Positions 2,255 to 29,336 of a stretch of DNA of 43,540 nucleotides are shown piece after piece. Source of the DNA: Klebsormidium nitens (taxonomy: Eukaryota > Plantae > Klebsormidiophyceae). The notes below the pieces were generated by a model. It was not told the origin of the DNA. It searched no databases and saw only the letters and a list, made by a program, of their open reading frames with translations. The position numbers and the translations under genes were made by a program. Each line of letters begins with the position of its first letter. Positions within the stretch are counted from its first letter, which is position 1. The DNA lies in assembly GCA_000708835.1 (NCBI GenBank), contig DF237545.1, positions 1-43,540 on the forward strand, in the 5' to 3' direction.

Positions 2255-2852
2255 TGTCACCCCCACGGAATGGGAAGGGTACCTGCAAGGTAAACCCCAT
2301 CACCTCAGAAAGGCATCCATACCCATTGGTAAATATGATCAGTCAGGGAATTAGCTTGCTCTTGCTGACAATGTTGCAATCTGCTTCAGGGCTCCTGCAA
2401 ACATGAAGCTGCATCTGCGGATTGTACTGCATTATTTGCGCATCACTAGGCATGTTCCTTCAAACATCTACTTTCCTATGGAACATTGATGTTTAGATTG
2501 GCCCGCAAAAGTGAATGGCCTTGACGGGGCGTGTTAACAAGCAATGCTGCGACTCAAACAAGGCTTTCAAGGGGGGACATCAATTTTTGCTGCCAAACAG
2601 GTGGAGTGGAAAATTGCTTGGTTCCGAAGAAATCCCAGTCGCAGAAGAACCAACCAAGCAGCAAAATCATTCAAGATAGCCATACCCGGTGGTAGGATCC
2701 CCTGCGCACACAAGTTGACAGCCCAATTACCTCCCCTCAAGCTCCGCTTCCTGTCTGCCGCCGAAGCTCTAGAGCTCCCTATACGACTAAACGAAGCTCC
2801 TAGCACTCCCACGATGCTTCACGAACTACAAAGGCCTATCCTGGACTCGGAG

Positions 2853-3076
2853 GTCGCAGAGTCGCGGTGAAAGTCGCGGACAAAAGTCGCGTAAGATCGC
2901 GGAAAGTCGCGTAACGTCGCGGAGCATTGCAAGCATCTAAACACAAAACTTGCTTGAAAACATGTTTCCTAAAGCTTAGTAAGGTTTTGGTGAAAGTCGC
3001 GAAGATCGCGAAACAAAGTCGCGGAGCAGTCGCGTAAAGTCGCGAAGAATCGCAGAAAGTCGCGCAACGTCGCGGG
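2853..3076 (+). repeat. two clusters of direct (G/A)TCGCG motifs, about 15 copies at about 10-nt spacing, separated by an AT-rich spacer of about 70 nt
   Basis: Read directly: gtcgcaga gtcgcggtga aagtcgcgga caaaagtcgc gtaagatcgc ggaaagtcgc gtaacgtcgc ... aagtcgc gaagatcgcg aaacaaagtc gcggagcagt cgcgtaaagt cgcg... Confidence 0.85.
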
Positions 3077-3899
3077 CAACTCTGGCAACCTCCGGGTCCC
3101 GGATAGGCCTCTACAAACAACGCCTGCGGCCTTTCTAAGTTTCTCGCCAGGTCCTCGTGATACCGACCGGAACTGTCTAAAGTGTACCCGTAGTCCAACG
3201 TGATAATTTCGACCGATTTTATTTCGAATTATTTTCCAACAATCCGACCAGGAAAGCGGAATTATTTATGCACATTCCGAAAACAATCCGAATGCCCTAT
3301 GTTCCCGGTAAGAAGGGGGTTTTAACTTTTAAGGCCGATTTTGGCCGCTTTGGGGCTTCTGAGGACCATTCTAGAATTATTTAACCTTTCCGAATTTCCA
3401 CTTCTATTAGGGACTGGTGAAATCGGAGTTATCAGACGGCCCGGGGGAAGCCTCCGGAATATTCTCCACCGTCCGATGAGACCCCCCGCCAGAATAAAAT
3501 TCGACTCGGAACACACTCGCGAACCAAATTAAGGACGGGGTAAAACCTCGTTTACATCGAAACCCGCAACGAATTCACTCGCGCCGCAAACGGCGGAACC
3601 TCGACCCACCGGGCACTGACCCCAGTCTGACCCCTCCCTGAACATCCGGAGCACACCTGCCACGTGGCATAACGAACAGAGACCGGGACCACTGAACGTG
3701 CCCTAGGTTCACTCGGAAAGTTACTGCTGGGCACGTTACGTGAGTCTCCCCGGTACATACCAATGACTTGGGTAGGAACCTCATGCCCAAGTCCAACTAG
3801 CAGTGCCATAATTTTGACATCTCAGTTTGACTGTTGTACGTAGAAACATGAAGTCCAAGACCAGCTAGCAGTCACCTTTTCAGGGCAAGGTAATGGTTT

Positions 3900-4041
3900 G
3901 AGCTCCCAGAACAAACCCTGGTGAGCTCCCATGTCCAACAGGGTTTGTTGAGCTCCCAGGTCCAACAGGGTTTGTTGAGCTCCCAGATCCAACAGGGTTT
4001 GTTGAGCTCCCAGGTCCAACAGGGTTTGTTGAGCTCCCAGG
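3900..4041 (+). repeat. 27-bp tandem repeat (GAGCTCCCAGGTCCAACAGGGTTTGTT) running into an assembly gap
   Basis: At least 4 near-identical units before the Ns at 4042. They are preceded by an inverted partial copy (AACAAACCCTG 3910-3920 vs CAGGGTTTGTT 3939-3949). Confidence 0.95.
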
Positions 4042-4784
4042 NNNNNNNNNNNNNNNNNNNNNNNNNNNNNNNNNNNNNNNNNNNNNNNNNNNNNNNNNNN
4101 NNNNNNNNNNNNNNNNNNNNNNNNNNNNNNNNNNNNNNNNNNNNNNNNNNNNNNNNNNNNNNNNNNNNNNNNNNNNNNNNNNNNNNNNNNNNNNNNNNNN
4201 NNNNNNNNNNNNNNNNNNNNNNNNNNNNNNNNNNNNNNNNNNNNNNNNNNNNNNNNNNNNNNNNNNNNNNNNNNNNNNNNNNNNNNNNNNNNNNNNNNNN
4301 NNNNNNNNNNNNNNNNNNNNNNNNNNNNNNNNNNNNNNNNNNNNNNNNNNNNNNNNNNNNNNNNNNNNNNNNNNNNNNNNNNNNNNNNNNNNNNNNNNNN
4401 NNNNNNNNNNNNNNNNNNNNNNNNNNNNNNNNNNNNNNNNNNNNNNNNNNNNNNNNNNNNNNNNNNNNNNNNNNNNNNNNNNNNNNNNNNNNNNNNNNNN
4501 NNNNNNNNNNNNNNNNNNNNNNNNNNNNNNNNNNNNNNNNNNNNNNNNNNNNNNNNNNNNNNNNNNNNNNNNNNNNNNNNNNNNNNNNNNNNNNNNNNNN
4601 NNNNNNNNNNNNNNNNNNNNNNNNNNNNNNNNNNNNNNNNNNNNNNNNNNNNNNNNNNNNNNNNNNNNNNNNNNNNNNNNNNNNNNNNNNNNNNNNNNNN
4701 NNNNNNNNNNNNNNNNNNNNNNNNNNNNNNNNNNNNNNNNNNNNNNNNNNNNNNNNNNNNNNNNNNNNNNNNNNNNNNNNNNNN
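4042..4784. other. assembly gap
   Basis: Run of N. Confidence 1.
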
Positions 4785-5072
4785 TAGGTCGGGACAGCCG
4801 GGACGGCTGGGACAGCCGGGGGACCCTTTCTGACCTCTAAAACGACTCGGGGACAGCGCGGTCAGCTGGGACAGCGTTTTGCGCCCTCGGAAGATTCCGA
4901 GAGAAAGTTTGGGGGTGTATTCAGGGTGGTATGGGTGGTTTCACAAACGAGGTCGTTTTTTCTATTTTCTGAGACTCTCGAAAGTGCTGTCCACGCTGAC
5001 GATGCTGTCCCCGACTCATTTATTTAATCGAAAAGGGGTACCAGGCTGTCCGAGCCGTCCCAGCTGTCTCTA
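4785..5072 (+). mobile_element. family-1 palindromic (GGGACAG/CTGTCCC) MITE-like element, copy A, left end lost in the gap
   Basis: Left arm GGGACAGCCGGGACGGCTGGGACAGCC...GACTCGGGGACAGCGCGGTCAGCTGGGACAGCG is an imperfect reverse complement (about 90 nt) of the right arm GTGCTGTCCACGCTGAC...CTGTCCCCGACTC...GGCTGTCCGAGCCGTCCCAGCTGTC. Confidence 0.7.
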
Positions 5073-5225
5073 GTCAAAGTCTCTTACTGCTTCTCTTGAT
5101 CATATAAAAGTATCAAGCAATGAGTAAGCAATCCGACACAGCCCATGCCGCTGCGCAGGGTGCACGAGAGCAGCAATCAGAGGACGCTCTTTCCTTCGAG
5201 GCCACCACACCGCAGGCGAGAACGT

Positions 5226-5515
5226 GCCACGTGTCAGCATCTGATGAGGCCAAACAGCCGGGACAGCTGGGACAGCCGGGAGACCCTTTCTGACCTCTCA
5301 AATGACTCGGAGACAGCGTGGTCAGCTGGGACAGCGTTTTGGTGTCGGGCCAGATTCTTAAAAAAGCTCTCGTATGGGTGGGTGTGCATTCAAGGTGGTA
5401 TGGGCAACTCAAATCTCAAATCTCCCAACTTCCGAAAACCCTGTCCTAGCTGACCACGCTGTCCCCAAGTGGTTTCAGAGTTCAAAAAGGGCTCCCCCAC
5501 TGTCCCAGCTGTTTC
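5226..5515 (+). mobile_element. family-1 palindromic element, copy B
   Basis: Starts GCCACGTGTCAGC, with a GGGACAG left arm and CTGTCCC right arm. Its right half is nearly identical to copy D. Confidence 0.7.
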
Positions 5516-5667
5516 TCATCATAGTCCTCTGATGGTTTTCTTAATGATACAAAACAGTAAGAAACAAGTGAGCAATTATATATGCAGGTCACAAGGAGGC
5601 AATCCATGGACGAATCCCCCTCTCCACAGGCCACTGCTGCAAAGGTAAGTTCTGCCTGTCGAGAGGT

Positions 5668-5785
5668 GCTACGTGTCAGCCTCTGATTGGCCGGGACAGC
5701 TGGGACTGCTGGGACAGCCAGGGAGCCCTTTTCGACCTCCGAAACCACTCGGGGACAGGGCGGTCAGCTGGGACAGCACTTTCAC
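5668..5785 (+). mobile_element. family-1 element, copy C (left arm only)
   Basis: CTACGTGTCAGCCTCTGATTGGCCGGGACAG...GGGACAGGGCGGTCAGCTGGGACAGC. No right arm is seen before the MSV199-like ORF. Confidence 0.6.
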
Positions 5786-5972
5786 TCTCTCTCAGATATT
5801 GCGAAAATGTCTTTTTTGCATTCGATGTGGTATGGGTCATCCAGATTTCACGCATAAAGGCATGAGGGAATTCACCCCTTGGTCAAGGGGATTGCATGAA
5901 AAGCGAGGACGCGCATTCTTATTCACGATATGTAACACAAATCTTCTTCGATCCTGAGGCTTCTGCCCCCGT

Positions 5973-6539
5973 TCACATATTGTACTCCTCAAAATATCCT
6001 GCTGCGTCTGTCTGGATCTGTTTTAGCATACATCGCAACTGTCTCTGCTTGAATCTTTCCATCTTGATCTGTGAGTATATCTGTTCTCGATAGCGCTTCT
6101 CGACCTCCATGTTCCAATTCTGCACGATCATTTGCGCTTGTTTCCTGTCTTTGCTCCGCTGCAGTTCTTGCGCTACCTCGTCACAACCTTCTCTGAACGC
6201 TCGGAAGAACAGCCGCACGTTGTCGCATGTCTCGCTCATTGCTACCATGGTGAAAGACTCGAAGGCAAAGGCAGTCATGTAGTGTTTGCGAACTGTGCGA
6301 GTTATTCTCACCGTGTAATCGACTCCTTCCTTAAAACCTTCGTGCTTTAGCTTGAGAATCCCGTCAGCTTTACTTGCGTACCCAACAAACCGCCAGACTT
6401 CATCAAGGTCGATCGGGAACTCGTTTCCCTCGTCGCTGAACGCCTTGAGAAAAACTGCAGCCAGGTTCTGATCGCCTTCGAACCTAGTTGCAGCCACTCG
6501 AGGATGCCCCAACACCGTCTGCAGGTCCATTGCCCCCAC
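5973..6539 (-). CDS. MSV199/KilA-N/AntA-like DNA-binding domain protein of large-DNA-virus type
   Basis: Intact, intronless 188-aa ORF. The motif FPIDLDEVWRFVGYASKADGILKL..GFKEGVDY resembles the FxIDLDxVWxWxGYxxKxxAxxxL...DY signature common in NCLDV proteins. The C-terminus is coiled-coil-like. Confidence 0.6.
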   Translation of the reverse strand: MGAMDLQTVLGHPRVAATRFEGDQNLAAVFLKAFSDEGNEFPIDLDEVWRFVGYASKADGILKLKHEGFKEGVDYTVRITRTVRKHYMTAFAFESFTMVAMSETCDNVRLFFRAFREGCDEVAQELQRSKDRKQAQMIVQNWNMEVEKRYREQIYSQIKMERFKQRQLRCMLKQIQTDAAGYFEEYNM

Positions 6540-6739
6540 CTAAGCGCCCTGTCTCGGATGTCTCCTCTCGGCACCATGGCGGTTCCTTATGACCCTCTCA
6601 CCCCAAGAATCCTCCCATGCCCAGATATGCCTTTGTTGTTCTCTGTTCAGGTCGACAAGAACACCGCTGCATTTGCGCGGGCTCAGGGGCATGAGGACGC
6701 TGCCACTGCTGCAGATGTAAGTTCTGCCTGTCTAGAGAC

Positions 6740-7025
6740 GCCACGTGTCAGCCTCTGATTGGTGGGGGACAGGTAGGACGGCCAAGACAGCCTGGGAGCC
6801 CGTTTTGACCTCTGAAACCACTCGAGGACAGGGCGGTCAGCTGGGACAGCGTTTTTGCTATCTCAGATATTGCAGGAAGGTCTCGGTGTATTCAAGGTGG
6901 TATGGGCAACCCGAATCTCAAATCTTCCAACTTCCGAAAACCCTGTCCTAGCTGACCACGCTGTCCCCAAGTGGTTTCAGAGGTCAAAAAGGGCTCCCCC
7001 ACTGTCCCACCTGTCCCAGCTGTTT
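6740..7025 (+). mobile_element. family-1 palindromic element, copy D
   Basis: GCCACGTGTCAGCCTCTGATTGG start, with both arms present. Confidence 0.7.
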
Positions 7026-7228
7026 CTCATCAGACTTGTCTAATGGTTTTCTTAATGAAACAAAAAGAGTAAGAAACAAGTAAGCAAATTTGTGCGCTAC
7101 CCGAACTTTTTGACGGACCTGTTGATAAGCCAGATCCAAGTCCAACCTGCAAGTACATTTCTCCCACTCCACGCAGGGCACGCAGAGACATCATATGCAG
7201 GCGACGCACGATCCGCAGGCCTTTGGTG

Positions 7229-8178
7229 NNNNNNNNNNNNNNNNNNNNNNNNNNNNNNNNNNNNNNNNNNNNNNNNNNNNNNNNNNNNNNNNNNNNNNNN
7301 NNNNNNNNNNNNNNNNNNNNNNNNNNNNNNNNNNNNNNNNNNNNNNNNNNNNNNNNNNNNNNNNNNNNNNNNNNNNNNNNNNNNNNNNNNNNNNNNNNNN
7401 NNNNNNNNNNNNNNNNNNNNNNNNNNNNNNNNNNNNNNNNNNNNNNNNNNNNNNNNNNNNNNNNNNNNNNNNNNNNNNNNNNNNNNNNNNNNNNNNNNNN
7501 NNNNNNNNNNNNNNNNNNNNNNNNNNNNNNNNNNNNNNNNNNNNNNNNNNNNNNNNNNNNNNNNNNNNNNNNNNNNNNNNNNNNNNNNNNNNNNNNNNNN
7601 NNNNNNNNNNNNNNNNNNNNNNNNNNNNNNNNNNNNNNNNNNNNNNNNNNNNNNNNNNNNNNNNNNNNNNNNNNNNNNNNNNNNNNNNNNNNNNNNNNNN
7701 NNNNNNNNNNNNNNNNNNNNNNNNNNNNNNNNNNNNNNNNNNNNNNNNNNNNNNNNNNNNNNNNNNNNNNNNNNNNNNNNNNNNNNNNNNNNNNNNNNNN
7801 NNNNNNNNNNNNNNNNNNNNNNNNNNNNNNNNNNNNNNNNNNNNNNNNNNNNNNNNNNNNNNNNNNNNNNNNNNNNNNNNNNNNNNNNNNNNNNNNNNNN
7901 NNNNNNNNNNNNNNNNNNNNNNNNNNNNNNNNNNNNNNNNNNNNNNNNNNNNNNNNNNNNNNNNNNNNNNNNNNNNNNNNNNNNNNNNNNNNNNNNNNNN
8001 NNNNNNNNNNNNNNNNNNNNNNNNNNNNNNNNNNNNNNNNNNNNNNNNNNNNNNNNNNNNNNNNNNNNNNNNNNNNNNNNNNNNNNNNNNNNNNNNNNNN
8101 NNNNNNNNNNNNNNNNNNNNNNNNNNNNNNNNNNNNNNNNNNNNNNNNNNNNNNNNNNNNNNNNNNNNNNNNNNNNNN
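7229..8178. other. assembly gap
   Basis: Run of N. Confidence 1.
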
Positions 8179-8629
8179 ATTCAAGACCGTAGGATGAGCA
8201 TCGTACGGCATATTTCAGGAGAGTAGGCCCACAAAAGTCGATTCCTAAGAATGAAACGTTTATAGCCTCGATTCGCCAAAGCATGTTCGTCCCGAGAGGG
8301 ACACCGGTGACAACCAAGCCGGAGGCGAGTGGTATGCAACACCGAAGGACGGACCTGCGAGAACCAAGCGGAGAAGACCCAAGTAGTTGCTAACACTGGA
8401 GGATGTAGATAGCCTCGAATGAACCTGGCGTTGCCAGGGGACGAGTCGGAGAGATGGCTCCGAGTCTCAGAAGCATGAGGGATTTGGTACTAGGCTAGAG
8501 GCGGGAGATAGCACGGTACACAGAAACATGAACAATGTTGCTCAAGTTTCATCCATCGGGTATAAGTTTAGGGAAGTTATTTTTTCTTCGAATCAAAATG
8601 CCAGTCAAAGCGTCGCATGGGCATGCCCT

Positions 8630-8745
8630 GCCACGTGTCGGCATCTGATTGGCTTGGCCAGCCGAGACAGCTGAGACAGCGGGGGGACACTTTCCGACCT
8701 CTCAAACCACTCAGGGACAGGGCGGTCAGCTGGGACAGCGTTTTG
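8630..8745 (+). mobile_element. family-1 element, copy E (left arm, degenerate right side)
   Basis: GCCACGTGTCGGCATCTGATTGG...GGGACAGGGCGGTCAGCTGGGACAGCGTTTT. Confidence 0.6.
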
Positions 8746-9469
8746 GGTGCGGTCGAGATTCGTGAGAAGCGGCTTGGTTCATTCGGGGCGGGATGGGGGA
8801 TATAAACAAGGAGGGATGTGCAAGTTTTGGAATAGCTCCCAACATCTCAAATCGTGCTGTCCTCTAGTCTTTTCAGAGGTCACAAGGACGCCCCAAACTG
8901 TCACAAGCCTTCCCAAATGTCTGTCTACTGCTTTCCGTACTTACGTCTGTCTCTTAGAGAAGATCGAGGGAGCTGCTCCCTGCATACAGACGTTTTGTTC
9001 ATATCTTTTGTGCAGGACGAAACCAATCTAGACGAGAGCACTGCTGTAGTTGCACCACGCGAGGAGAGATGTGCAGATCAGGGGGAGCAGGGGGTCGATC
9101 GCCTGTCGTCGCAGGCTGCGGTATCAGAGGTGAGTTGAAACGTTATCTGACCGTACGTCCTCGTGACTGCGAGTCGAGACAGGAGTGCCGTGTTGATGCA
9201 TCGGGGGTGCCACGTGTGAAACTCCCAGTCGTCCCAGCCGTCCTGATCAACTTTCTGTACTTAATATGTTGATCAATTCTTTCTAGTAGAAACGAAGCAC
9301 GATGTTCAGCTCCTTGTCCTCCTTCTCACGTGACTCTGTGCAGGATGCGATGAAGATAGACGAGAGCACTGCTGTGACAATGCGAGGCGAGGAGAGTTGT
9401 GCAGATCACGGCGAGCAGAGAGGCGATCACCCCACGCCGCATGCTGAGAGGTCAGAGGTAAGAATGGGT

Positions 9470-9772
9470 GCCACGTGTCACCAACTGATTGGTGGGACAG
9501 CCGAGACGGCTGGGACTGCCATGCACCCCTTTTGGACCCCTAAAAGCACTCGGGGACAGCGCGGTCATCTGGGACAGCGTTTTGCACCCTTCGGCAGATT
9601 TCGAGAAGAAAGTAGGGTGGTATGGGTGGTGTCGCAGACGAGGTGGTATGAGCAAGCTTTTCATTTTTTGAAAAACTCCTGAAAGTGCTGTCCACGCTGA
9701 CCACCCTGTCCCCGACTCATTTATCTAGTCAAAAAAGGGTACCAGGCTGTCCCAGCCGTCCCGGCTGTCTCT
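9470..9772 (+). mobile_element. family-1 palindromic element, copy G
   Basis: Full two-arm copy, closely similar to copies A and H. Confidence 0.7.
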
Positions 9773-10141
9773 ATTCAAAGTCTCTACTGCTTCTCTTAAT
9801 CAAATAAAAGTGTTAAGCAACGAGTAAGCGATCCGACACAGCCCATGCCGCTGCGCAGGGTGCACGAGAGCAGCAATCGGAGGCCGCCCCCATTACCGAG
9901 GCCGCCACACCGCACTTAATGGCGTCGAACGAGGTATGCCACGAGTTCGGACGCTCTGCACACTCCCACACAATAGCCCCCTGTCTCTCACTGTTTAAGA
10001 AAGGTGGTCCTATTCTGGCGTAGGTTGGCCACAAGGATTCGAAACCCGCTGAGCAAACCATGGGAGACTTGGTTCACCAGTAAAAAAATCGAACGAATCG
10101 CATGCCAACTGCAGCAAAGGTACGAGCATCTTGCGAACGGT

Positions 10142-10508
10142 GCCACGTGTCAGCAAATAATTGGTCGAGACAGCTGGGACGGCTGGGACAGCCGGGGGAC
10201 CCTTTCTGACCTCTGAAATGACTCGGGGACAGCGCAGTCGGCTAGGACAGCGTTTCTCACCCTTCGGTAGATTTTGAGAGAAAAGTAGGGTGGTATGGGT
10301 GGTGTCGCAAACGAGGTGGTATGAGCAAGCTTTTCATTTTTCCAGAAAACTCTTGAAAGTGCTGTCCACGCTGACCACCCTGTCCCCGACTCATTTATCT
10401 AGTCAAAAAGGGGTACCAGGCTGTCCCAGCCGTCCCAGCTGTCCCCGATCGACTCTACTCATTTTTTTCAATCGTTTCGAGAATATATGAATAGAGTTTG
10501 ACACGTGT
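10142..10508 (+). mobile_element. family-1 palindromic element, copy H, with CACGTGTCA...TGACACGTG outer termini
   Basis: Both arms present. Begins GCCACGTGTCAGC (10142) and is followed by TTTGACACGTGTC (about 10497-10509), the reverse complement of the start. Confidence 0.7.
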
Positions 10509-11092
10509 CTTTTGCCCTTCGATTGATACATAAGGAACCCGACGCACCTGGTTCGTCGCACCAGGCTCCGGTGGCGATGGAAGTGCAGCAGGAAGGGAGG
10601 GGTCTCAAGCGGCGTCGGTCGTTCGATGGGGGCCAGGTGAGTCGATGACCGCCACGTGTCGAATCCGCTTCGACGACTGAGTGGCCACCGCCATCCAGAT
10701 CTCTGAAAAGGAACAGGTGAGGTCCGCTTCAGAAGTAGAGGAAATATGACTGCGTCGTGATCTGCGAGAATCTAGTTTGCTCCCGACGCGGATCGCCCTC
10801 GACGAGACAAGGCCCCTCGTCTCACAGTGTCGCTCCGCCCATGTCGCAGAAGGCTCTCGCCCTGCGCTACAAAGCATGCGGGTATCCGGTATTCTCCGCA
10901 TCGATCTCCTGGGACGCCGCCAAGAACAAGAAGGTGCTCAGGATGCCCGATCGATGGCAGCGCTGCGACCTGCGAAACTGCCTGGCCTCTTTCTTCGACC
11001 CCATGGAGCCTGCCATCCTGATCAACACCACCACGTGCGACCTCGTAGCCCTCGACGCGGACGTCTGGACATGATGGGGGCATGTCCACTTT

Positions 11093-11797
11093 NNNNNNNN
11101 NNNNNNNNNNNNNNNNNNNNNNNNNNNNNNNNNNNNNNNNNNNNNNNNNNNNNNNNNNNNNNNNNNNNNNNNNNNNNNNNNNNNNNNNNNNNNNNNNNNN
11201 NNNNNNNNNNNNNNNNNNNNNNNNNNNNNNNNNNNNNNNNNNNNNNNNNNNNNNNNNNNNNNNNNNNNNNNNNNNNNNNNNNNNNNNNNNNNNNNNNNNN
11301 NNNNNNNNNNNNNNNNNNNNNNNNNNNNNNNNNNNNNNNNNNNNNNNNNNNNNNNNNNNNNNNNNNNNNNNNNNNNNNNNNNNNNNNNNNNNNNNNNNNN
11401 NNNNNNNNNNNNNNNNNNNNNNNNNNNNNNNNNNNNNNNNNNNNNNNNNNNNNNNNNNNNNNNNNNNNNNNNNNNNNNNNNNNNNNNNNNNNNNNNNNNN
11501 NNNNNNNNNNNNNNNNNNNNNNNNNNNNNNNNNNNNNNNNNNNNNNNNNNNNNNNNNNNNNNNNNNNNNNNNNNNNNNNNNNNNNNNNNNNNNNNNNNNN
11601 NNNNNNNNNNNNNNNNNNNNNNNNNNNNNNNNNNNNNNNNNNNNNNNNNNNNNNNNNNNNNNNNNNNNNNNNNNNNNNNNNNNNNNNNNNNNNNNNNNNN
11701 NNNNNNNNNNNNNNNNNNNNNNNNNNNNNNNNNNNNNNNNNNNNNNNNNNNNNNNNNNNNNNNNNNNNNNNNNNNNNNNNNNNNNNNNNNNNNNNNG
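11093..11797. other. assembly gap inside the primase-helicase gene
   Basis: Run of N. Confidence 1.
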
Positions 11798-12042
11798 AGC
11801 GGAGGACCCCTCATTCACACTGCGCCCATTGCTTCTCTTCCCTCCGTCGTTACCGACCCGTCATGTCAACTCTCTCAGATCTCGTGCTTTTCGACCTACG
11901 TCGCATTCGTACGCCTCTCATGCACGACTCGCTTTTCCCCTCCTTGGACCCCGTGCCCCTGCGTGATGAGGTCGTGTACTCTTACAGGTCTGAAAGGTGT
12001 GCGGGTCGCGGTATGCGAAGAGGCGAGCAACTCGGACACTCT

Positions 12043-12070
12043 GAACTCGAACTCGAACTCGAACTCGAAC
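12043..12070 (+). repeat. (GAACTC)4 microsatellite at the helicase frameshift
   Basis: gaactcgaactcgaactcgaactcgaacactcaag. The helicase frame changes at its 3' end. Confidence 0.9.
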
Positions 12071-12185
12071 ACTCAAGAAGCTGGTGGGGACGGAGGTCAT
12101 CACGAGCAGAGAACTGTACAAGGCATTCGTCACATTCGAGACGACCCAGCTGGTGAGATGACCTGACTAGATTGGAATTGGTGAC

Positions 12186-18601: not shown

Positions 18602-18626
18602 TTAAATCACTGATTTAGTGATTTAA
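18602..18626. other. AT-rich perfect hairpin TTAAATCACT-GATTT-AGTGATTTAA
   Basis: 10-bp perfect inverted repeat with a 5-nt loop, among further AAATCA copies from 18581. Confidence 0.7.
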
Positions 18627-20065: not shown

Positions 20066-21637
20066 GCTGCCTACAATGAGACAGCCGCAACGTATCAAAA
20101 CTACTCCTCTTTACGCCCGGTGTGCCTACTTCGCCAAGTTTTGTGCACTCGGTGGATACAAGATGGGAAGCTTCCGGCCTCAAATGAGCCCCACCCTTTG
20201 AATTCTAAACCCCCACCCACGCGCACTCGCGCCGAGTTATCAAAGCAGCACCATGCGCGCACCGGATTCCGCCGCACGTCCGGCGAAAGCGAATAAGTGA
20301 GGCAAGTCCACATAGCATTCGCTGCCACAATTTAAGCCGCACTCCCAGAACAGCTAGGGGGAACAAAATACTTGTCTAATATACCCGTCTTCTACTCGAG
20401 GCAGCTGCTTTGATCTCCACCAATGGCGATGGAACTTCAGGATATAATTCTCTTAAATGCAGGAGTCGATCTCTATGATGCAACTTCACTCAGAAGACAA
20501 TATAAGCTGCCAAGGCGTCGTGGCCTTACGTGCTCTCCTGTAAATGCCGATTCCATCTGCTCCTTTGTAGTTTCTTGACACATTATGTAGTTTCTGGACA
20601 CTTTCTAAGCATCATTCAGAGCCAATTTAACATGTCATTCTGCATTCATGGCTCTAGCGTAAAGAACCACATTTATGCGTTACGAACAATCAACCTGGCA
20701 GGCTGCCCTGATGCTCACTATGGGTCACTCTTCTGCCTGTCCACCTGTCAACATCAGCTCACGTGTATCTAGCAGGGCGCCATAAAAATGCTTCTGATGT
20801 AACACATTTGATGCTACCAAAACCAACCAGCGCCATTGGTAGCCTCAGGTGACGTCCCCCTCCCATTTCTTTTGGCAACTCTGTCATCTCCCCAATACAA
20901 AACCAAAACAAGAGTTGAGAGAGTATGTCTCACGCGTTTCGGGAAACCTGAGGACGTGTGATAACGCCATCATCCTTTTATACCCACCTTACAGTCTTGG
21001 TTCTGTCGACATTACATACGAAAAAGTAGTGGCAGCCAATTTCAAGCTCGCTGATATTTAGGTCATATAATCTAGAAGCACCTGATTGGAGCTCTTGCCC
21101 CCAGTGTTTTCACATATCCTGAAACCCGTTTCGCCAGGTGCCCGTGTCCGACAGAGCCTCCGCTGGCACCCCATCTTCAGGCGCGCGCGACGGCAGCGGC
21201 ACTGCTGTTGGACCTTGAAGCTGCAGCACCCGAAAGAGGCACTGTTCGCAGGTAGGGTCTACAATAGCTCGAACTAATGAGCGAGATCGCAAACAAGAAC
21301 GTGCGACACCGTCCATCCCGATTCGCTATCCCTCCATGCCGCCCGGGATTCGGGCCGCCTCCGAGAACGACACGGAACAATTTCGCTTCCGAGTTCTATG
21401 AAAGTGTATATACTAGAGTTTGTTTTTTTCCCGCTGGTCGATTCGCGTATGAGAGCTAGGCGGGGGCAAGCAGCCGCTGATCTCGTGACACGTGTCCCCA
21501 CAGACCGCCTGGAATCTCCGGGTATGCTCCCGTCCTGCCACGTGTATCGCTTTCATCGGTCGCCCTCCCTTCAGAGTCGGGCCTCCGACGGCGCTCCATC
21601 TTCTGACGACCCGGGCGACAGCATCGAGCTCAACATT

Positions 21638-21664
21638 CAATAACAATAACAATAACAATAACAA
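21638..21664 (+). repeat. (CAATAA)n microsatellite
   Basis: caataacaataacaataacaataacaa, just upstream of a TTCAG acceptor. Confidence 0.9.
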
Positions 21665-21869
21665 ATTCAGGAGGAGCGGTCCAGCGAGAGCCAGACCAGC
21701 GGCTCTCTGGCAGACCTCAGAGACGATGTCGGCACCCCCCGGGAAGGTGCGGCGTTCTACCCGGCCATCGACAACGAGCATGCAGCAGCACTGGAAGATC
21801 ACAATCTGCAACAGGTCGGCATCTATATTCCTTCTGCAGACCGTTGTTCCAACCTCCGCATGCGGGCCA

Positions 21870-22910
21870 ATCCTCCAAAATATGACCGTGACATTACGGA
21901 TTGCCTCCTCAAAAAAGTGGACAGGACTGACTCGTGCCGCCAGATCCAACCGGCGGACAAGTCCTCGGCCCCCAGGGCCAACCGTCCACATTCTGACTGT
22001 GACATTACGGATTGGCTCATCCAAAATGTGGACAGTACTGGCTCGTGCCCCCAGGGCCAACCGTCCACAATCTGACTGTGACATTACGGATTGCCACCTC
22101 CAAAATGTGGACAGGACTGGCTCGTGCCCCCCGGGCCAACCGTCCACATTCTGACACTGACATTACGGATTGCCTGNNNNNNNNNNNNNNNNNNNNNNNN
22201 NNNNNNNNNNNNNNNNNNNNNNNNNNNNNNNNNNNNNNNNNNNNNNNNNNNNNNNNNNNNNNNNNNNNNNNNNNNNNNNNNNNNNNNNNNNNNNNNNNNN
22301 NNNNNNNNNNNNNNNNNNNNNNNNNNNNNNNNNNNNNNNNNNNNNNNNNNNNNNNNNNNNNNNNNNNNNNNNNNNNNNNNNNNNNNNNNNNNNNNNNNNN
22401 NNNNNNNNNNNNNNNNNNNNNNNNNNNNNNNNNNNNNNNNNNNNNNNNNNNNNNNNNNNNNNNNNNNNNNNNNNNNNNNNNNNNNNNNNNNNNNNNNNNN
22501 NNNNNNNNNNNNNNNNNNNNNNNNNNNNNNNNNNNNNNNNNNNNNNNNNNNNNNNNNNNNNNNNNNNNNNNNNNNNNNNNNNNNNNNNNNNNNNNNNNNN
22601 NNNNNNNNNNNNNNNNNNNNNNNNNNNNNNNNNNNNNNNNNNNNNNNNNNNNNNNNNNNNNNNNNNNNNNNNNNNNNNNNNNNNNNNNNNNNNNNNNNNN
22701 NNNNNNNNNNNNNNNNNNNNNNNNNNNNNNNNNNNNNNNNNNNNNNNNNNNNNNNNNNNNNNNNNNNNNNNNNNNNNNNNNNNNNNNNNNNNNNNNNNNN
22801 NNNNNNNNNNNNNNNNNNNNNNNNNNNTTTCAAAATGTGGACAGGACTGGCTCGTGCCCCCAGATCGAACCGGCGGACAAGTCCTCGGCCCCCAGGGCCA
22901 ACCGTCCACG
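21870..22910 (+). repeat. family-3 array 1: 79-bp units with a palindromic core GTCCACATT...AATGTGGAC; spans a gap
   Basis: Core starts at 21984, 22063 and 22142 (period 79). The array resumes after the Ns at 22828. Confidence 0.95.
22177..22827. other. assembly gap within family-3 array 1
   Basis: Run of N. Confidence 1.
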
Positions 22911-23209
22911 TTTGGCCTCGGATGTACTATGTATCCAAGGGCGATGCCAGAATGCCAGCCGACTCCTGCGTGCGTCCCTCCTTGCAGCCCTCGACTCCCA
23001 TCTCTACCCCGTCGCATTTGCGCGAAGTCCAGCAGCCCGCTGTTAACCGAGAAGCGCACACCGAGAGCGATCCGGGCTTCGGAGATGCCGCCAGCAACGG
23101 AGCAGAATCCAACGCATCCACCGACGGCGAGCGTGCAGCTGCGTGGCGCCGTGACAGTTTGCCGAAGGTGAAGTTATTCATAGCCCCTCGAACCAGTCGT
23201 CTATTCTGT

Positions 23210-23300
23210 GCACCCAGAGCCAACCGTCCACATTTTGAAAGAGGCAATCCATAATACCATGATCAAAATGTGGACGAGTCTGTCTCGCGCACCCAGACCG
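23210..23300 (-). repeat. single family-3 unit with the core in reverse orientation
   Basis: GCACCCAGAGCCAACC-GTCCACATTTTGAAAGAGGCAATCCATAAT...CAAAATGTGGAC is the reverse complement of an array-2 unit. Confidence 0.85.
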
Positions 23301-23495
23301 ACCGGCAAAAACAGAAAATGCTTTCCCTCAGGGCCAACTCTTACTTCCAGGTGGCACGGCCAGTAGGTCAGGCCGACCTTCGAAACTTCACATTCTACAA
23401 GCCTATTTTCCAACATATTCACGTGCTTCCCTCGTCGACTACGCGTACCAATCATCAGAACGATTGTCTTTTTGAATTCACAGGCAAGGAACGCA

Positions 23496-26400
23496 ATGAC
23501 GGACACTGAGCGATCGGGGCTTCGAAAACAAACAGCAGCCCTTCGCCCCCGTCCTCTCGGCTGCACCGTGGTCCATTCCGAGCAGGAGGGCAAGGTCCAA
23601 ACCGTCCGACAGGACAACTTGCTGGGCACCTCTTTCTTCTTCAAGCTCAGCGTGCCCGCTCTGCACCACCGTGACACCAGGAACGGGCCGCAAGCGCTTC
23701 GCAGCAGCCATGGGCCATGGGATAGAGGTCAGACACCTCACGCCCCATCGGAACTACGGATCCTATCCGGAATGGCCGACCGCAGCCCCTCTTCTCCACG
23801 GCCAGCTTCACCTGGAAGAAGTGATGGCGGAGGGGAGACCATGCAAACCGTACTTGGATCTGGAAAGGGACGATGGGCTGCCGCCCGGGGAGGATCTCTC
23901 GACGGTCATCGCCCGCATCCGGGAGGGGGTCAAGGAGGTGTTCGACCAGGACTACGACGTGCAACTGGCCGACGATGACTTCAACTGGTTGCATTGCGAT
24001 TACGGTCCAAAGGGCAAGTTCTCCCTCCATCTCATCGTATCGACTCACGGCCCGCAATTCGTCTATCGGTCGAACCTAGTGCCGCCTGCTGATCCTCAGG
24101 GGGCCGGCCATCTCGCAAGGCGCCTGGCAAAGATCCTGGCCGCTCACTTGGCCGAGCTCATCGACCAGAGCGTGTTCACGCGGAACCGGGGGATGCGTCT
24201 GCCATTCTGCTCGAAACCAAAGACACCGGGCAACCCGCTCATCCCGATAGACCCGAACAAGCCTTTGGCGGACTCCGTCATTACGTGGATCGACGAGTAA
24301 GCCTGCACCTTCGGATTGGCATACAACCGACGATTGTATCAGAGCGATGGCGGCGTTCAGCTTGCGCGTCTCCGTCTCATCGTCGTTCCGGGACCGTGGA
24401 TTCACACTCGCCTTCCTCCCTGTAGGACACGTGCTTCATCCCCGTGCCAATCTTGGTCCCGGATGCGGTCCGGGAGAACCGTCCACGGCGCACGCCTGCA
24501 GATATGACGTACGTCAACCCACAAGTGGCGTCGAGCTTTCACGTTCAGCGCTGCTTGGAACTCCTTCAAGAGAGGTTGCACCCTACCGCTTACAAAAGGG
24601 GTTCCTCCGCAGCGCTGAGCTTCAGCTGGACGGACAGGCTCGGAGAGCCTTGCTACACGAATCACATCCACTCGGGGGACCGAGACATTATCTGCATCAT
24701 CGACGAGCCTGGGAACGCTGTGCTGGCGAAGTGCTGCAGCGAGCGCATCGATCCGGGCACGGGTGTCTGCTGCAAGGACCAAAAGGCCTTCTACCTGGGG
24801 CCCCTCCATGTCGACGTGGAGAGCTGGCGGGCCGGCGCAGTGGAGATCGACATGCGGTTCCTAGAGCGGGATGCTCTTTCGGCGGCCGACATGGACTTGT
24901 GCCTCATCAAGGCCGGTGTGAAGCCGCTGACTGACAAGATGTCCTTGAACGTCATCCTCAACAGGTGAGTGTCTGGGCGAGGCCCGTCGGGAACCCTTCT
25001 TTCCGAGAAACAACGCATTCCGTTTGCACTAAGATGCGATTCTTCGTGTCACTTTCAAATTGTGGACGGTGTGAAGCGGTTCCCAATACCTGGACTGTTG
25101 GTCCCGTGTTTGTACGGACAGAAATTATCCACAGTGTGACTTTGAGTTCACAGTCTCGTCCACATTCTGACTGTGACATTATGGTTTGCCTCTTTCAAAA
25201 TGTGGACGGTTGGCTCTGGGGTGCGGAAGATAGTCTCGTCCACATTCTGACTGTGACATTATGGTTTGCCCCTTTCAAAATGTGGACGGTTGGCTCTGGG
25301 TGCGGACAGCACTCTCGTCCACATTCTGACTGTGACATTATGGTTTGCCTCTTTCAAAATGTGGACGGTTGGCTCTGGGGTGCCGAAGACAGTAGCGTCC
25401 ACATTTGACTGTGACATTATGGTTTACCCCATTCAAAATGTGGACGGTTGCCTCTGGGTGCGGACAACAGACTCGTCCACATTCTGACTGTGACATTATG
25501 GTTTGCCTCTTTCAAAATGTGGACGGTTGGCTCTGGATGCGGAGGACCTCGCGCACCGCGTTCTGGTGCCGAGCCCAATCGTGTCCGTATCTTGAACGAC
25601 CCCTCGTCCACATTTCGAGGAGTCATTCCAGCACGCCGCGTGCGAATTGTGGCCGGCTGATCGTGTAGGCTTAGGCAGTCTTGTATACATCTTGAAAAGA
25701 TAATTGTGAATCCAGCAGGTCAGAGGTGAGTCGTGGCCGGTCATGAGTGCCTAAGACAGTCTCGTCCACATTCTGACTGTGACACCATGGATTGCCTCTT
25801 ACAAAACCTGGACGGTTGGCGCTGAGTGCGAAGGACATTCCTGTCCACATTTTGAAAGAGGCAATCCATAATATCATATACAAAATGTGGACCGTTGGTC
25901 CTGGGGCCGTAGGATTGTCTGTATACATTTCAAACTAGGCAAACCATGTTGCTCACGTCCAAGATGTTGTCGCTTGCAAGACTTTGTCAATTTTGGAGTC
26001 GATGCATTCAGGTTCTCGGTCTCATCGGACTTCATTTCCGTCCTGCAGGTGGCAGGCCGGGAAATTGAAGACCCTCCTTCTGAAGAGCCCTATGGGCACC
26101 GGCAAGTCGACTCTCCTCCGAGCGTTGATGTCGGAACAGCCTCGAACACGGACGGCCCTCATGATCACGTATCGGCAGACGCAGGCCAGTGACGCGCATG
26201 GCAAGAATGCCGACTTCTTCCAGTATGACCATCTTGTCAGGCCGTGTCGTCGATGACAGCATGTTTATCGAGGCATTGGCAGACAGAGACCGCTTCCCCC
26301 GTGTGATCTGCTAGGTCGACAGCGTTCCCCGACTTCTGGTTGGGGGGAGGCTCGTCACGTCATTCGATCTCATCAAAGTTCTGGACGAGAGCGAATCGAT

Positions 26401-27577
26401 CTTTTCGCACCTGTCCGCCGCCACCCTCAAAACTAGGCGCAAGACGATGAGCTTCATGGTTCAGCTCTTCCAAGAGGCTAAGAAGATCGTCGCCATTGAC
26501 GGTCACTTGGGTCAGCGCCCTTACGACTTATTGTCCATGCACCGGATCGCATGCGGACCCCGCAGCTCTATCAGAGTGTAGCTAATGATATCTGGACATA
26601 TAAACGAGCACCTCCCAGCCCGACCGCTCTGCTTCGAGTTGGTCACCGGTAACGAGGGTCTGGACGTCTAGACTGAAGCGATCTGCGGGGTTCTCTAAGT
26701 GGCGAGAATTACTTCGTCGTCAGCATGTCGTCGGAGGCAGCCTATCGGCTGGCAGACACAATTTCGGGGACCCGGTTGGTGCCGGAGTCTGAGGTTCCGA
26801 TGGTGACAAGACATTCGGCGGGAGATGTGAAGAAGGCGCTGGAGAACGTTCATGTTGCGTGGCTGAGACGCGTCGGCATCATCAGCCCGAGTGTCGAGGA
26901 GGGGGTAGACTTCAACCGGGAGTGGTTCGACTGTACCTTCATCTATATGTGCCCCTTCAGTACGACTCCACGCGGCCTTGATCAGATGAAGGGCCACGTC
27001 CGATACGTGCGAGAGCCGACTGTTTTGTGCTTCGTGCACTCGCGGATGGTTCTATCGACCGTTTCGACCGGATGCTTTTCTGACGTGGACGAAGCATCCG
27101 GTGAGGATCAAGCCAACCTCTTCGAACGCTATTATGGTGCTCGTCGCGCCTATGCAGTGAATCTATCCGTCGAACCGTCCTAAGCTCGAGCCGTATCGCT
27201 CACTGGCTTCCTCGAAAATTTCCAGGATCGTCCGCATCTCATTAGTCGAAACCGGTCTGCGTGCAGATGTCGAAGAGGAGCTGTACTCTACGGGAATGGC
27301 ACCCAAGCGGGCTGCCTTCAGCTGGCTGGGGGTCGAAGAGACCTACCAATTCTTCCGCCGGGTGGATGGCAAGCTGGACAATATTGTGGCAGGAAAGACT
27401 CGTCACAGAGGGGATGCAGGGGAGCCGGAATACATCCCTGTCGAGTTCGCGGCGGGGCGGATCCGCCAGAGAGAGGAAGGAGGGGTGTCAGAAGTCGTCC
27501 CTGCCGAGGACGCGGTGATCAGGATGTTCGCTCACAATGAGGCCGAGCAAGGCAGATATTTTGCTCTTGGCACATAA
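23496..27577 (+). pseudogene. AEP (PrimPol/UL52-like) primase + Zn-finger + UL9/origin-binding-like SF2 helicase fusion, intron-containing and decayed
   Basis: AEP motifs HLEEVMAEGRPCKPYLDLE (I), KFSLHLIV (II) and IDQSVFTRNRGMRLPFCSK (III). Donor at 24297, acceptor at 24425. Cys/His region PCYTNHIH...LAKCCSE...CCK. Intron 24965-26048 joins in frame to LLKSPMGTGKS (Walker A), ITYRQTQA, VIC*VDSVPRL, VLDESESIFSHL (Walker B) and AIDGHLG, then IYMCPF. Stops at 26312, 26669 and 26696, plus several frameshifts. Confidence 0.8.
25060..25905 (+). repeat. family-3 array 2: 78-80-bp units inside the primase-helicase intron
   Basis: Units start at 25155, 25235, 25314, about 25394 and 25472. Further cores lie at about 25764 (forward) and about 25843 (inverted). 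Confidence 0.95.
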
Positions 27578-29336
27578 TTCTAATTCGTTGCTTAATCAAA
27601 CAAGAACGCACTTGATTCCTTGTTCCAATGCCCATTCTATAGCACTTCCAATCACTTGTGTGCTGTCGTATATCCTTGCCGAGCTGCTTTCTGCTTCATA
27701 TAGCTCCCCTGAGCAACGTCGGTCTCTACACATATTCAGAAAGAGCCCGCGAATTAGCCTTGCCCCTCAGCATTTCTCTCGACCAATTTGAGGGTTTGCA
27801 CATCGTTACTTTCTCTGCCCACCAAGAAATGCAATCTGGGATCTTATCAAGCCTAACTGCAAAAGGGAGGACTGCTTACAATAAAGAGTGTGAAGGAGTG
27901 ATAACCAGGGGAATGCTTGCATTGTCCAAAAAGGTACGAGTATCGCGGGGTTGCAATTGATTTCTGATCGTCCATATCCTCAAGCATTGGGCACAAACGG
28001 GGTCATGTTTAAGGGACATTGCAAAAAAGGGGCAAATAATGCGCTATCCTTCGAGGGGGTGCACGCTGGCGAATACGGACTTTTTGTGTGAAGTAGAGAC
28101 ATTGTCTAGCTGGGGACCACCTACAGGCCATATGTTGTGGGGTGAAGGGCACCCAACTCTCGAGCGGGGTGCATATTATGCGTGCGTGAAGATGGGGTTT
28201 TACCGAAAAAGGAGTGTTTTTCGGTGTTTTTTTTAAAACCGCAACACATTTTCAGGGCCCGGTTATATGAAGTGCCGAAACTTAACATGCGTAACTTCCA
28301 TGACCGGTGCAACCTTTTTTGAGTCTCTATTAGTATCAAATTCAAGTTTGTTCGCCACCACGGACGTTCGGAAGGCATAGGTATCTGCAAGCCTAGCGAG
28401 GCCTTTTCGTGGGTTGTGCGTTTGATGCGTTGGACCTCCATCAACCGACGTCCGGTGGACGATTCAACCACATCGAGCAGACGCTGACACTGTCGAGACC
28501 GTGTGAAGATGAAAACGTGCATGCTCAACAGCCTTGCCACGGGTGAATTTGCGTATTAGGGTTTTGGAGGCGAGTTTGGTTACCAAACTTATTGACCCGG
28601 GTAGTTGTCAAGGCTTGGAGTGTTTTAGAATTATCAGCGCTGCCTAAATCAGTCATGCAATACTTGTCGAGCTGATTGGTAAACTCTAATTTGAGAGAAC
28701 GTTCATAATAGCTAATGGGCGGGCATGGGGTACAAAACTACACCAACTTGCGACCATTGATGAGGATATTTAGATGTCAAATGTCACAACACCTGCGGCG
28801 CATACAATACTGCCAGAGCTGAGGTGAACAACGTAAGTGATCCTCCACGGTTTCAACTTTGTTGCTATAGCGAATGTTCCAAATCGTTGTTCAAAGCCCA
28901 TTTTCCCCTGAATTTTCATGTATCACATACATGTCATGCCTTCCTCCATATTCCATACTACATCTTGCGTATGTCTTCCAGGTACTACATTCTTCAAGCT
29001 ACCGTTGTTTAAAGACATTCTACCATTCTCTGCTCTGCGTCCAAAATATAATCGTGCAAAATCCGTCACACATGGGAACCGCAATACACCACCATTGCAA
29101 GGCTTAACAAATCGGTCTACATCAATCTGGTGACAACACACAGTAAGTCCTTCCTACACTTAAGAAGACATGCATCGAAAGAAGCAACTAGTAACAACGC
29201 AACAACAACGTGGCCCGAGAAAGCCTCCCCACCAGATGTCATCGAGAAGCACTCAGGGTGCGCGATTACTCAGATTGCCCAATTGTCTGATGAGGTTTGC
29301 CAAGTACTGGTGAGCCCCAAAACGTCAAGTAATCCA

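Follow-up and report, generated by a model that had tools for sequence, protein, structure and literature searches.

Decayed viral-type replicase genes and candidate cognate boxes in their introns at a Klebsormidium nitens locus

Introduction

Where DNA replication begins in giant viruses, virophages and PLVs is, to our knowledge, largely undefined. A stretch of 43,540 nucleotides from Klebsormidium nitens, referred to here as the window, holds an island of primase-helicase genes with palindromic repeats in their introns, which raises the question of whether gene and repeat belong together as replicase and site, and whether they have moved together as DNA. An initial annotation had proposed a family of capsid-less, self-replicating elements, each with one initiator gene and its own origin-like repeats. 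A literature search, with subscription journals outside its coverage, returned no paper that deals with the locus or describes intronic boxes in genes of this kind. AEP domains joined to UL9-like SF2 helicases occur in mimivirus R8, ASFV pF1055L and the yaravirus SF2_hel (Nucleocytoviricota, mriyaviruses; PMC11253617), and at the herpes simplex virus oriS the UL9 boxes are inverted and subject to a spacing requirement (PMC13458718).

Results

Two replicase designs in three broken genes

By their predicted domains, the three genes of the island are of two replicase designs: a D5/P4-type SF3 primase-helicase (gene 1) and an AEP-Zn-UL9 fusion (genes 2 and 3). All three are broken and represent pseudogene copies, a point absent from the initial annotation, which was right that the genes are real and mistaken in calling them three different primase/helicases.

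The core of gene 1 (10841-13011, + strand) has a Prim-Pol-like start, which we take to be Prim-Pol by motif; the 77-aa piece before the assembly gap gave no significant match in Pfam and other searches. An SF3 helicase domain is present, with Walker A unseen at the gap (11093-11796) and motifs at 11987-12480 that are presumably Walker B, B′ and C. In the 3′ part, matches were obtained to phage primase/polymerase/helicases by tblastn (E 8e-6) and to a PHROG DNA primase (E 1e-4). The frame is broken at an (AACTCG)n run (12038-12070), and an intron inside the helicase domain (12153-12414) holds a unit of the repeat family F1. No relatives of gene 1 were found among the longer proteins or viral contigs searched. 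A 5′ extension (4785-10636, + strand) is predicted, consisting of F1-bearing introns and seven short phase-0 exons of 57, 57, 66, 114, 114, 75 and 102 nt, which are open and acidic and include two duplicated exon pairs. An antirepressor-like ORF (5976-6539, − strand; tblastn to phage antirepressors E 6e-4) is inserted in one F1 intron, and another copy runs from 5882 directly to 7124 without it.

Gene 2 (15041-18073, + strand) contains a PF02399 helicase, an in-frame stop at 15565 and introns at 15347-15471, 15748-16428 and 17361-17523. Its paralogs P0002 and P0003 have at their N-terminus an AEP domain plus a Zn finger, and their alignment to the window begins at 15041, at Walker A; the AEP domain is thus missing from gene 2 because the 5′ end is truncated. 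P0003, whose architecture is AEP-Zn-UL9, aligns with the family of gene 3 (family A) over 489 columns (prob 96.4), so that gene 2, previously held to be a distinct helicase type, is a truncated fusion (family B) homologous to gene 3. The place of the missing half is occupied by a gene for an EsV-1-7 cysteine-repeat protein (13382-14788, − strand; PF19114 E 6e-35) at depth 32-70, depth here and below being taken from run contigs as a rough measure rather than a copy number. Its C-terminus is, we assume from motifs, nuclease-like.

Gene 3 (21662-27577, + strand) is a PrimPol-type AEP-Zn-UL9 fusion with low-complexity 5′ exons. Its frame breaks near 23695, 24297, 26235 and 26690, a stop lies at 26312 and the 3′ end is lost. 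The profile of its paralogs matches human PrimPol (E 1.8e-8) and HSV UL9 (E 1e-21); PF02399 is found here as in gene 2, and UL9 was matched in the PDB. The PrimPol-type AEP has its catalytic motifs in gene 3 and in family A, where paralogs with 59-64% identity to the gene 3 AEP exon retain them, and an AEP domain is present in P0003 of family B as well. Two AlphaFold models were unusable (pLDDT 38 and 36).

An island without viral hallmark genes

The replicase genes in the window derive from at least three lineages and have no hallmark genes beside them. Searches of 150 of the 154 ORFs that lie outside the main genes and reach 70 aa or more gave no Pfam match to capsid, polB, A32, integrase or VLTF3 in the window, of which 3,048 bases are N and unread, with the caveat for capsid and packaging genes that PLV capsids can escape Pfam. 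This bears out the earlier remark that no capsid, polB or integrase is visible; the NCLDV hallmark genes MCP, polB, A32 and VLTF3 were likewise absent from the window's Pfam matches. Self-BLAST of the window found no long terminal repeats, Rfam gave no match, and at the window copies we found no target duplication, termini, integrase or raised depth.

Genes 2 and 3 are separated by a single-copy spacer (18330-21100, with an ORF at 19433-20110 on the − strand) that was correctly described as host-like: its CpG o/e is 0.68 (0.49 in the ORF) vs 0.86-0.98 for the viral-like genes, and a single contig runs across 16274-21977. The host-like spacer, together with the absence of core genes, upholds the view that the island is not a single conventional giant-virus insert.

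The left flank is a host LRR receptor-like gene (707-2299, − strand; Pfam LRR; CpG o/e 0.67). It is followed by a moderately repeated sequence rich in AAAGTCGCG (2849-3111, seven copies; summed contig depth ~250-670 vs 16 for single-copy DNA), which is probably unrelated to the helicases, and by the end of a very high-copy element (3188-3403, + strand) with a sharp left border, loose ends at 3188 and depth up to 9435. Other copies of this element, which we take to be Tc1/mariner-like, are preceded by TA. It was considered as a terminus of the island and rejected, since the window holds neither a second end nor an inverted copy. At the right edge lies a low-copy repeat (28030-28540; depth 45-71) with no Pfam match.

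Two repeat families are private to their genes

F1, the GGGACAG family (4785-12395), is built of dyads of ~290 bp with ~90-bp arms and a G-box head; a GCCACGTG box heads most of the units. Six are full (4787, 5224, 6738, 8628, 9467 and 10140), and there is a shortened unit at 12187, a half unit at 5667 and a remnant at 9209. The family is limited to the gene 1 zone, as first reported: 33 of the 38 GGGACAG matches in the window fall inside 4791-12345, where composition predicts 0.79. All 33 are in candidate introns drawn by hand, two of which (4785-5158 and 8199-9015) begin at or just after an assembly gap that leaves the donor unseen. Five of the seven units tested fold strongly (z −7 to −12), and no arm-to-arm co-evolution was seen within units. 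The GACAG boxes are conserved, with compensatory pairs at 1/43, a pattern that suggests DNA sites read by their sequence.

F3, the GTCCACATT family (21868-25909), is an inverted box pair with fixed spacing, as at HSV oriS. The span is 50 bp in eight of nine complete units and 49 in one, the period is 79 bp, and both orientations occur. All 21 matches of the motif lie in three GT-AG introns of gene 3 (21815-22939, 23168-23483 and 24965-26048); F3 is therefore confined to gene 3 as had been stated, and the copies once placed upstream of the gene are in fact intronic. Both families are at low depth in strain DNA (15-55 for the F1 zone and 10-22 for the F3 zone, vs 16 for single-copy sequence; run X1, 80% likeness), unlike the unrelated high-copy element at 3188, and this contig-based check agrees with repeats that are gene-specific rather than genome-wide. 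Runs X5 and X11 contained short low-depth pieces only and were set aside.

F2 (GCCACGTGGC) is of another kind. Its tandem array (15784-16361, + strand; about four units of 140-154 bp in intron 2 of gene 2) folds weakly (z −2.4 and −2.6), and a 95%-identical piece is present in run X8. A profile built from F2 only also matches a diverged module fused to an F1 unit (8558-8637, + strand; nhmmer E 6e-8) and, weakly, a module upstream of gene 3 (21376-21495, + strand; match at 21382-21457, E 0.024) whose alignment score of 42 compares with a maximum of 34 in 2000 shuffles; another contig repeats 21339-21499 in tandem. F2 is thus not private to gene 2, and the GCCACGTG box at the head of most F1 units likewise speaks against its privacy; it looks more like a promoter module common to several genes. 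With two replicase designs and an F2 relative in the gene 1 zone, the picture of three initiator types, each with a private repeat family, is not supported.

Family A likely multiplied as intron-bearing DNA

Seven named family-A proteins and three of family B lie on different contigs. An intron-less paralog of gene 2, which is without the repeat-bearing intron, occurs in DNA and RNA-labelled runs and is apparently expressed. Family A forms one clade (99) within a 30-row clade (98) of which P0012, from locus L001, is a member, and contains recent sister pairs (P0006/P0008 and P0010/P0011). The placement of family B carries a long-branch warning; gene 2 itself (win_g2_exon3) fell on a long branch away from that family and was disregarded.

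Five further gene-caller ORFs (P0004, P0015, P0054, P0086 and P0101; 48-78% identical pairwise) stop at the very codon at which the window exon ends at 24965, and the acceptor of the 24965 intron is where P0023 comes in, from which it follows that this intron predates the family-A radiation. Since family A shares an old intron and has seven paralogs on other scaffolds, it likely multiplied as intron-bearing DNA.

The age of this intron bears on a further explanation, namely that the dyads are introner-like elements, small transposons that create introns and are known inside viral elements (PMC12166617). The F1 introns are indeed homologous over most of their length between unrelated exons. However, depth at F1 and F3 is low, with no sign there of high-copy homologous introns across unrelated genes, four introns are free of such repeats, and the 48-78% divergence of the paralogs is more recent than the F3-bearing intron at 24965. 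We consider an introner origin very improbable.

Dispersed multicopy families, recent sister pairs and a radiation after intron gain are what could be expected if gene and boxes were an entire nuclear mobile element, copying itself and inserting through a tyrosine recombinase encoded elsewhere or by break repair. The helicase domains also match CyRepA1 (NF042913), a family of single-gene plasmid initiators, with E 2e-34 for P0012 and E 2e-13 for P0003, although their scores of 119 and 50 bits fall short of the family cut-off of 200 bits. Autonomously mobile AEP replicases have been proposed in a preprint (10.64898/2026.10.13.758929). Against such autonomy, the window contains no termini, target duplication or recombinase, and its genes and the intron-less paralog are at chromosomal depth (10-18 vs 16, from the contigs of one DNA run of an uninduced culture). 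The pseudogene state of the window copies, the loss of the repeat-bearing intron from that paralog and the frequent location of relatives in capsid-encoding contigs point the same way. We regard autonomous replicons as a tentative reading, rather doubtful on this evidence.

Inverted repeats recur beside AEP-UL9 genes in viral contigs

Among 17 IMG/VR loci, with stem thresholds chosen after the loci had been inspected, stems of at least 12 bp (span 40-80) lie within 700 bp of 8/17 AEP-UL9 genes vs 15/99 other genes (Fisher p 0.006), and at 9 bp the counts are 13/17 and 35/99 (p 0.002). Nine of the 17 viral loci fail the 12-bp test, and AT-rich intergenic hairpins in viral contigs may be terminators. 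In L018 a tandem array directly follows the AEP-UL9 stop codon, with a 50-bp span, a ~77-bp period and both orientations; its sequence is unrelated to F3 and its geometry is alike. Repeat geometry like that of gene 3 thus recurs beside viral AEP-UL9 genes, which suggests that a private inverted box pair of ~50-bp span is a candidate site for such proteins. The F1 pattern has no match in the viral contigs; the F3 pattern yielded 13 palindromes, all of them single and away from any related gene, which we attribute to chance. Scans with A1 and A3 found no match in viral contigs or prokaryote genomes.

Relatives of these genes often reside in capsid-encoding virophage/PLV-like contigs: L028 carries Sputnik-type capsid genes, and L024 and L029 carry A32 and integrase matches. 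No such stem accompanies the AEP-UL9 gene of L001, the nearest relative for which DNA was available. There, an ORF lying head-to-head with the intact gene can be aligned to tyrosine recombinases of virophages and PLVs, a label that rests on weak tblastn (E 2e-4 to 0.02) and on an alignment with R, K, LRH, H and Y in place, residues whose recombinase roles we assume; searches of the ORF against Pfam, PHROG, NCBIfam, PDB and phage sequences gave no match, and as a query it matched nothing in the window. No capsid ORF was recognised in the 7.4 kb of L001, an arrangement that would suit autonomous replicons, but the contig is too short to exclude capsid genes.

These contigs also bear on ordinary decay of giant-virus or PLV inserts, in which scattered fragments would carry intron satellites or MITE-like repeats unlinked to the proteins. 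More than one kind of NCLDV insert, several in all, is present in K. nitens (PMC5294986), methylation is enriched on its viral genes (PMC12344493), AEP-UL9 proteins are known from the viruses named above (PMC11253617) and endogenous giant viruses gain introns (10.64898/2026.10.09.758095). The EsV-1-7 and antirepressor-like genes of the island fit such decay, exon-intron duplication accounts for part of F1, and F2 is common to genes. Yet core genes are absent from the locus, and decay leaves unexplained why F3 keeps a fixed 50-bp span in both orientations, why L018 has a matching geometry and why stems are enriched at viral AEP-UL9 genes. Unlinked decay is an unlikely account, less so than introners.

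Discussion

Our preferred reading, which we hold to be somewhat probable, is that the island is a nest of decayed viral-type replicase modules, and that the intronic dyads of genes 1 and 3 are candidate cognate boxes of the encoded proteins, for binding or as origins, copied in cis and tolerated where they are spliced out. It draws on domain content, breaks, intron positions, the confinement of F1 and F3, the dispersed paralogs and the shared family-A intron. Against it stand the stem-free flank of the L001 gene, the nine viral loci below the 12-bp threshold, the intron-less family-B paralog, the F2 modules common to several genes, and the search for gene 1 relatives, which found none with DNA. 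The modules would derive from virophage/polinton-like or giant-virus replicons, in which AEP-UL9 genes often stand beside private inverted box pairs. In the nucleus they would have gained spliceosomal introns and then multiplied as DNA. Within each gene the boxes may have spread, possibly with re-initiation at these sites as the driver: exon-intron duplication would account for the 5′ part of gene 1, and insertion or conversion among introns that are not homologous for its helicase intron and for the three introns of gene 3. Copies would then have accumulated at this site, recombined and decayed.

The locus also hints at a family of capsid-less mobile DNA elements. In its fullest form this would mean capsid-less, intron-bearing replicon families in Klebsormidium, each with one primase-helicase and with origin boxes hopping in cis into introns, which arose from virophage/PLV replicase modules, multiplied as DNA and nested here; such replicons would be the spliced, nuclear equivalent of plasmid replicons with a single gene. 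We put this forward as a possibility that we think unlikely. If true, autonomous families would constitute a class of eukaryotic mobile DNA with a primase-helicase and without transposase, capsid or polB, and would back the independent mobility recently proposed for AEP replicases. If the replicons are not autonomous, the locus nonetheless shows clearly how replicase genes of viral origin acquired introns and multiplied in a relative of land plants. A private inverted box pair of ~50-bp span, present beside AEP-UL9 genes of viral contigs as well as in a nuclear gene of an alga, is a direct candidate for the sites that these replicases read.

Several known systems resemble the island in part. 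Giant endogenous viral elements of algae, among them K. nitens inserts in the same host, combine viral-type genes with gained introns, whereas the window has replicase genes only and no hallmark genes. Virophage/polinton-like replicase modules (10.64898/2026.10.13.758929) have the same replicase types, tandem replicases and a nuclease-like neighbour, and their relatives lie on contigs with A32, integrase or Sputnik capsid matches; the window, in contrast, is without capsid, A32, recombinase or terminal repeats, and boxes in spliceosomal introns are not mentioned in the accessible part of that preprint. The AEP-UL9 proteins of Nucleocytoviricota and mriyaviruses have the same domain order of PrimPol-type AEP, Zn finger and UL9-like helicase, but the island is nuclear, multicopy and intron-bearing, with dyads in its introns and no core viral genes nearby. 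CyRepA1 has a related helicase domain, although it is prokaryotic and its N-terminus is different. HSV-1 UL9 lacks a primase domain, no AT run forms the spacer of F3 and the F3 boxes are multiplied in introns; nevertheless, the helicases are homologous (E 1e-21), and in both systems inverted boxes stand at a fixed spacing.

Genes 2 and 3 share one fusion architecture

Gene 3 is a member of family A. K. nitens has seven other named members, each on a different contig; all retain the AEP motifs and are 59-62% identical to the AEP exon of gene 3. A paralog profile of this family matched human PrimPol (E 1.8e-8) and HSV UL9 (E 1e-21), bearing out the initial annotation of gene 3 as a primase-Zn-UL9 fusion. 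In the window, gene 3 is interrupted by frame breaks near 23695, 24297, 26235 and 26690 and by a stop at 26312, and its 3' end is missing. Its decay is likely to be recent, because in other samples there are close relatives (P0050, 96%; P0101, 98%; P0051, 79-90%) with intact reading across several of the broken sites.

One exon of gene 2 shows 99% identity to K. nitens KFL_005960040, which assigns the window to this streptophyte alga. In family B, to which gene 2 belongs, the paralogs P0002 and P0003 both have an AEP and a Zn-finger domain, and P0003 can be aligned to family A across 489 columns. Since the match of these two paralogs to the window begins only at 15041, at Walker A, gene 2 is a truncated AEP-UL9 fusion and no third design, and the description of three different genes has to be given up. 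An opposite-strand EsV-1-7 repeat gene lies immediately upstream of 15041, and gene 2 has a stop at 15565. For gene 1, annotated as Prim-Pol/D5 SF3, the helicase end is indeed D5/P4-type SF3, and its start is putatively Prim-Pol, judged by motif; the reading frame is broken at a hexamer run. The window contains four assembly gaps totalling 3,048 N.

Repeat families within the introns

The units of F1, the GGGACAG family of gene 1, are dyads about 290 bp long, with a fold z of -7 to -12 in five of seven units. Within 4791-12345 there are 33 of the 38 GGGACAG matches (0.79 expected), all 33 in candidate introns. Between these introns lie seven open phase-0 exons, among them two duplicated pairs; one of the introns interrupts the helicase domain of gene 1, flanked by unrelated exons. 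The GACAG boxes are conserved, and just 1 of 43 pairs has a compensatory change. The F1 heads (5224-5250, 6738-6762 and others) hold a G-box and CTGATTGG; the opposite strand reads CCAAT-N10-CACG, which we take to resemble a plant promoter element, and the F1 and F2 heads may be promoters or enhancers. One contig links 7228 back to 4785-like sequence and a second omits 5883-7123, which suggests further collapsed exon-intron units inside the assembly gaps.

Each F3 unit is a pair of inverted boxes with a span of 50 bp in 8/9 complete units; the period is 79 bp and both orientations occur. All 21 motif matches fall in gene 3, within three of its introns. The tandem array F2, located in intron 2 of gene 2, is not private because relatives occur at 8558-8637 (E 6e-8) and, weakly, ahead of gene 3. 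A private repeat family for each gene, as first proposed, thus holds for F1 and F3, both confined to introns of their own gene, and fails for F2. Nor do the repeats look spread genome-wide, the pattern that would have counted against the initial annotation: when DNA contigs of the strain are compared at 80% likeness, the repeat zones have a depth of about 10-55 vs 16 for single-copy sequence, contig depth being a rough guide.

Intron history

A DNA contig of 5356 bp (depth 18) carries a family B paralog that lacks all three introns of gene 2, so these introns are not common to the whole family. Pieces matching this paralog (window 15096-17928) occur in RNA-labelled runs at depths of 165 and 355, and the paralog is possibly expressed or domesticated. 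In family A, five ORFs (48-78% mutual identity) share the final codon of the window exon that ends at 24965, P0023 begins at the acceptor of the 24965 intron, and P0050 and P0073 continue into an intron at the position equivalent to 24297; this family likely multiplied as intron-bearing DNA.

Sequencing run X8, from another organism, contains a 96%-identical gene 2 copy (window 16430-18325) without intron 3 and with its own stop at 16702, a 95%-identical piece of F2, and a family A paralog in which the inserts at 24297 and 24965 are missing. We infer that X8 is RNA, because exons are covered and the spacer is not; the run is labelled 'DNA?'. Its gene 2 copy is suggestive of a transcribed gene decaying independently. 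The motif G(I/V)E(S/P)NPG, presumably 2A-like, occurs in N-terminal extensions of P0003, P0006 and P0008, representing both families, and is absent from the window's reading frames.

Relatives and their loci

A profile search gave 6,745 matching proteins with an E-value of at most 0.001; the 19 distinct top matches inspected among the best 150 of these are nameless or 'hypothetical', on contigs mostly shorter than 40 kb. In a FastTree phylogeny of 54 helicase rows, family A forms one clade (99) within a 30-row clade (98) that includes P0012 and has no IMG/VR loci. Family B clusters with the viral loci L023, L024, L028 and L031, a placement carrying a long-branch warning. The Atlas clusters around both families are those of Nucleocytoviricota, Preplasmiviricota and eukaryotes, with Mucoromycota the commonest among the last; the nearest are mostly eukaryotic, hinting at parallel expansion in fungi. 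Scanning 10 viral loci (57 ORFs) for neighbours returned Sputnik-type capsid genes in L028, A32 and integrase matches in L024 and L029, and A32 in L031.

The most probable reading, favoured somewhat over even odds, is that replicase modules of viral type nested here and decayed, and that their dyads are putative cognate boxes which reached the introns by spreading in cis. Stems within 700 bp of the gene were scored at 17 IMG/VR loci, with thresholds chosen after the loci were viewed: stems of at least 12 bp adjoin 8/17 AEP-UL9 genes vs 15/99 other genes (p 0.006), nine of the 17 failing, and at 9 bp the counts are 13/17 vs 35/99 (p 0.002). Long stems spanning 50-71 bp adjoin the gene in L016, L017, L018, L020, L021, L022 and L027; those of L017, L018, L020, L022 and L027 are members of a contig-specific repeated family, which in L018, L020, L022 and L027 occurs elsewhere in the contig too. 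The L018 array begins 6 bp past the coding end and has the geometry of F3 (50-bp span, about 77-bp period, both orientations) in unrelated sequence. Such hairpins could be terminators, and L001 has no such stem beside its AEP-UL9 gene. Ordinary viral debris with unrelated satellites, which would leave the F3-like geometry of L018 unexplained, is an improbable account.

Fully autonomous capsid-less replicons, as the initial annotation proposed, are a less doubtful alternative than debris, though still unlikely. Its remark that no capsid, polB or integrase is visible agrees with zero Pfam matches to these or to A32 in 150 of 154 window ORFs. P0012 comes from L001, a GC-rich contig on which an intact, intron-less AEP-UL9 gene and a recombinase-like ORF lie head-to-head, the pair occupying 1097-6168 and 6168-7120, and a perfect direct repeat of 300 bp comes after them. 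The recombinase-like ORF can be aligned to ORFs in viral contigs that resemble tyrosine recombinases, and it has no match anywhere in the window. Self-comparison of the window gave no terminal repeats, and the strain's contigs no raised depth over genes 1-3. The overall observation is upheld in part, and decayed modules remain the preferred reading.

Flanking DNA

An element end at 3188-3403, unrelated to F1-F3, is of very high copy (depth up to 9435 vs 16); other copies have TA ahead of the border, and RNA-labelled runs contain copies too. Positions 2849-3111 hold a AAAGTCGCG iterated element of moderate repeat number, with an imperfect inverted pair at 2831 and 3095, and a tandem repeat with a 27-bp unit (3922-4041) continues into the first of the four gaps. 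Farther right, a host gene rich in cysteine and proline is duplicated in inverted orientation (34895-36326 and 39407-40820, 79%), and 42863-43540 is a fragment of an LRR plus Sel1 gene with 72-bp tandem repeats.

Comparison with known systems

Our search of the openly accessible literature found no paper on this K. nitens locus or on intronic boxes within such genes. Published work describes AEP-UL9 fusions in mimivirus R8, ASFV pF1055L and yaraviruses (PMC11253617), several NCLDV inserts in K. nitens (PMC5294986; PMC12344493), spliceosomal introns acquired by endogenous giant viruses (10.64898/2026.10.09.758095), and inverted boxes bound by UL9 with a spacing requirement (PMC13458718). A preprint (10.64898/2026.10.13.758929) describes tandem polisuvirus elements with several replicases, links AEP replicases with tyrosine recombinases, and considers autonomous AEP mobility possible.
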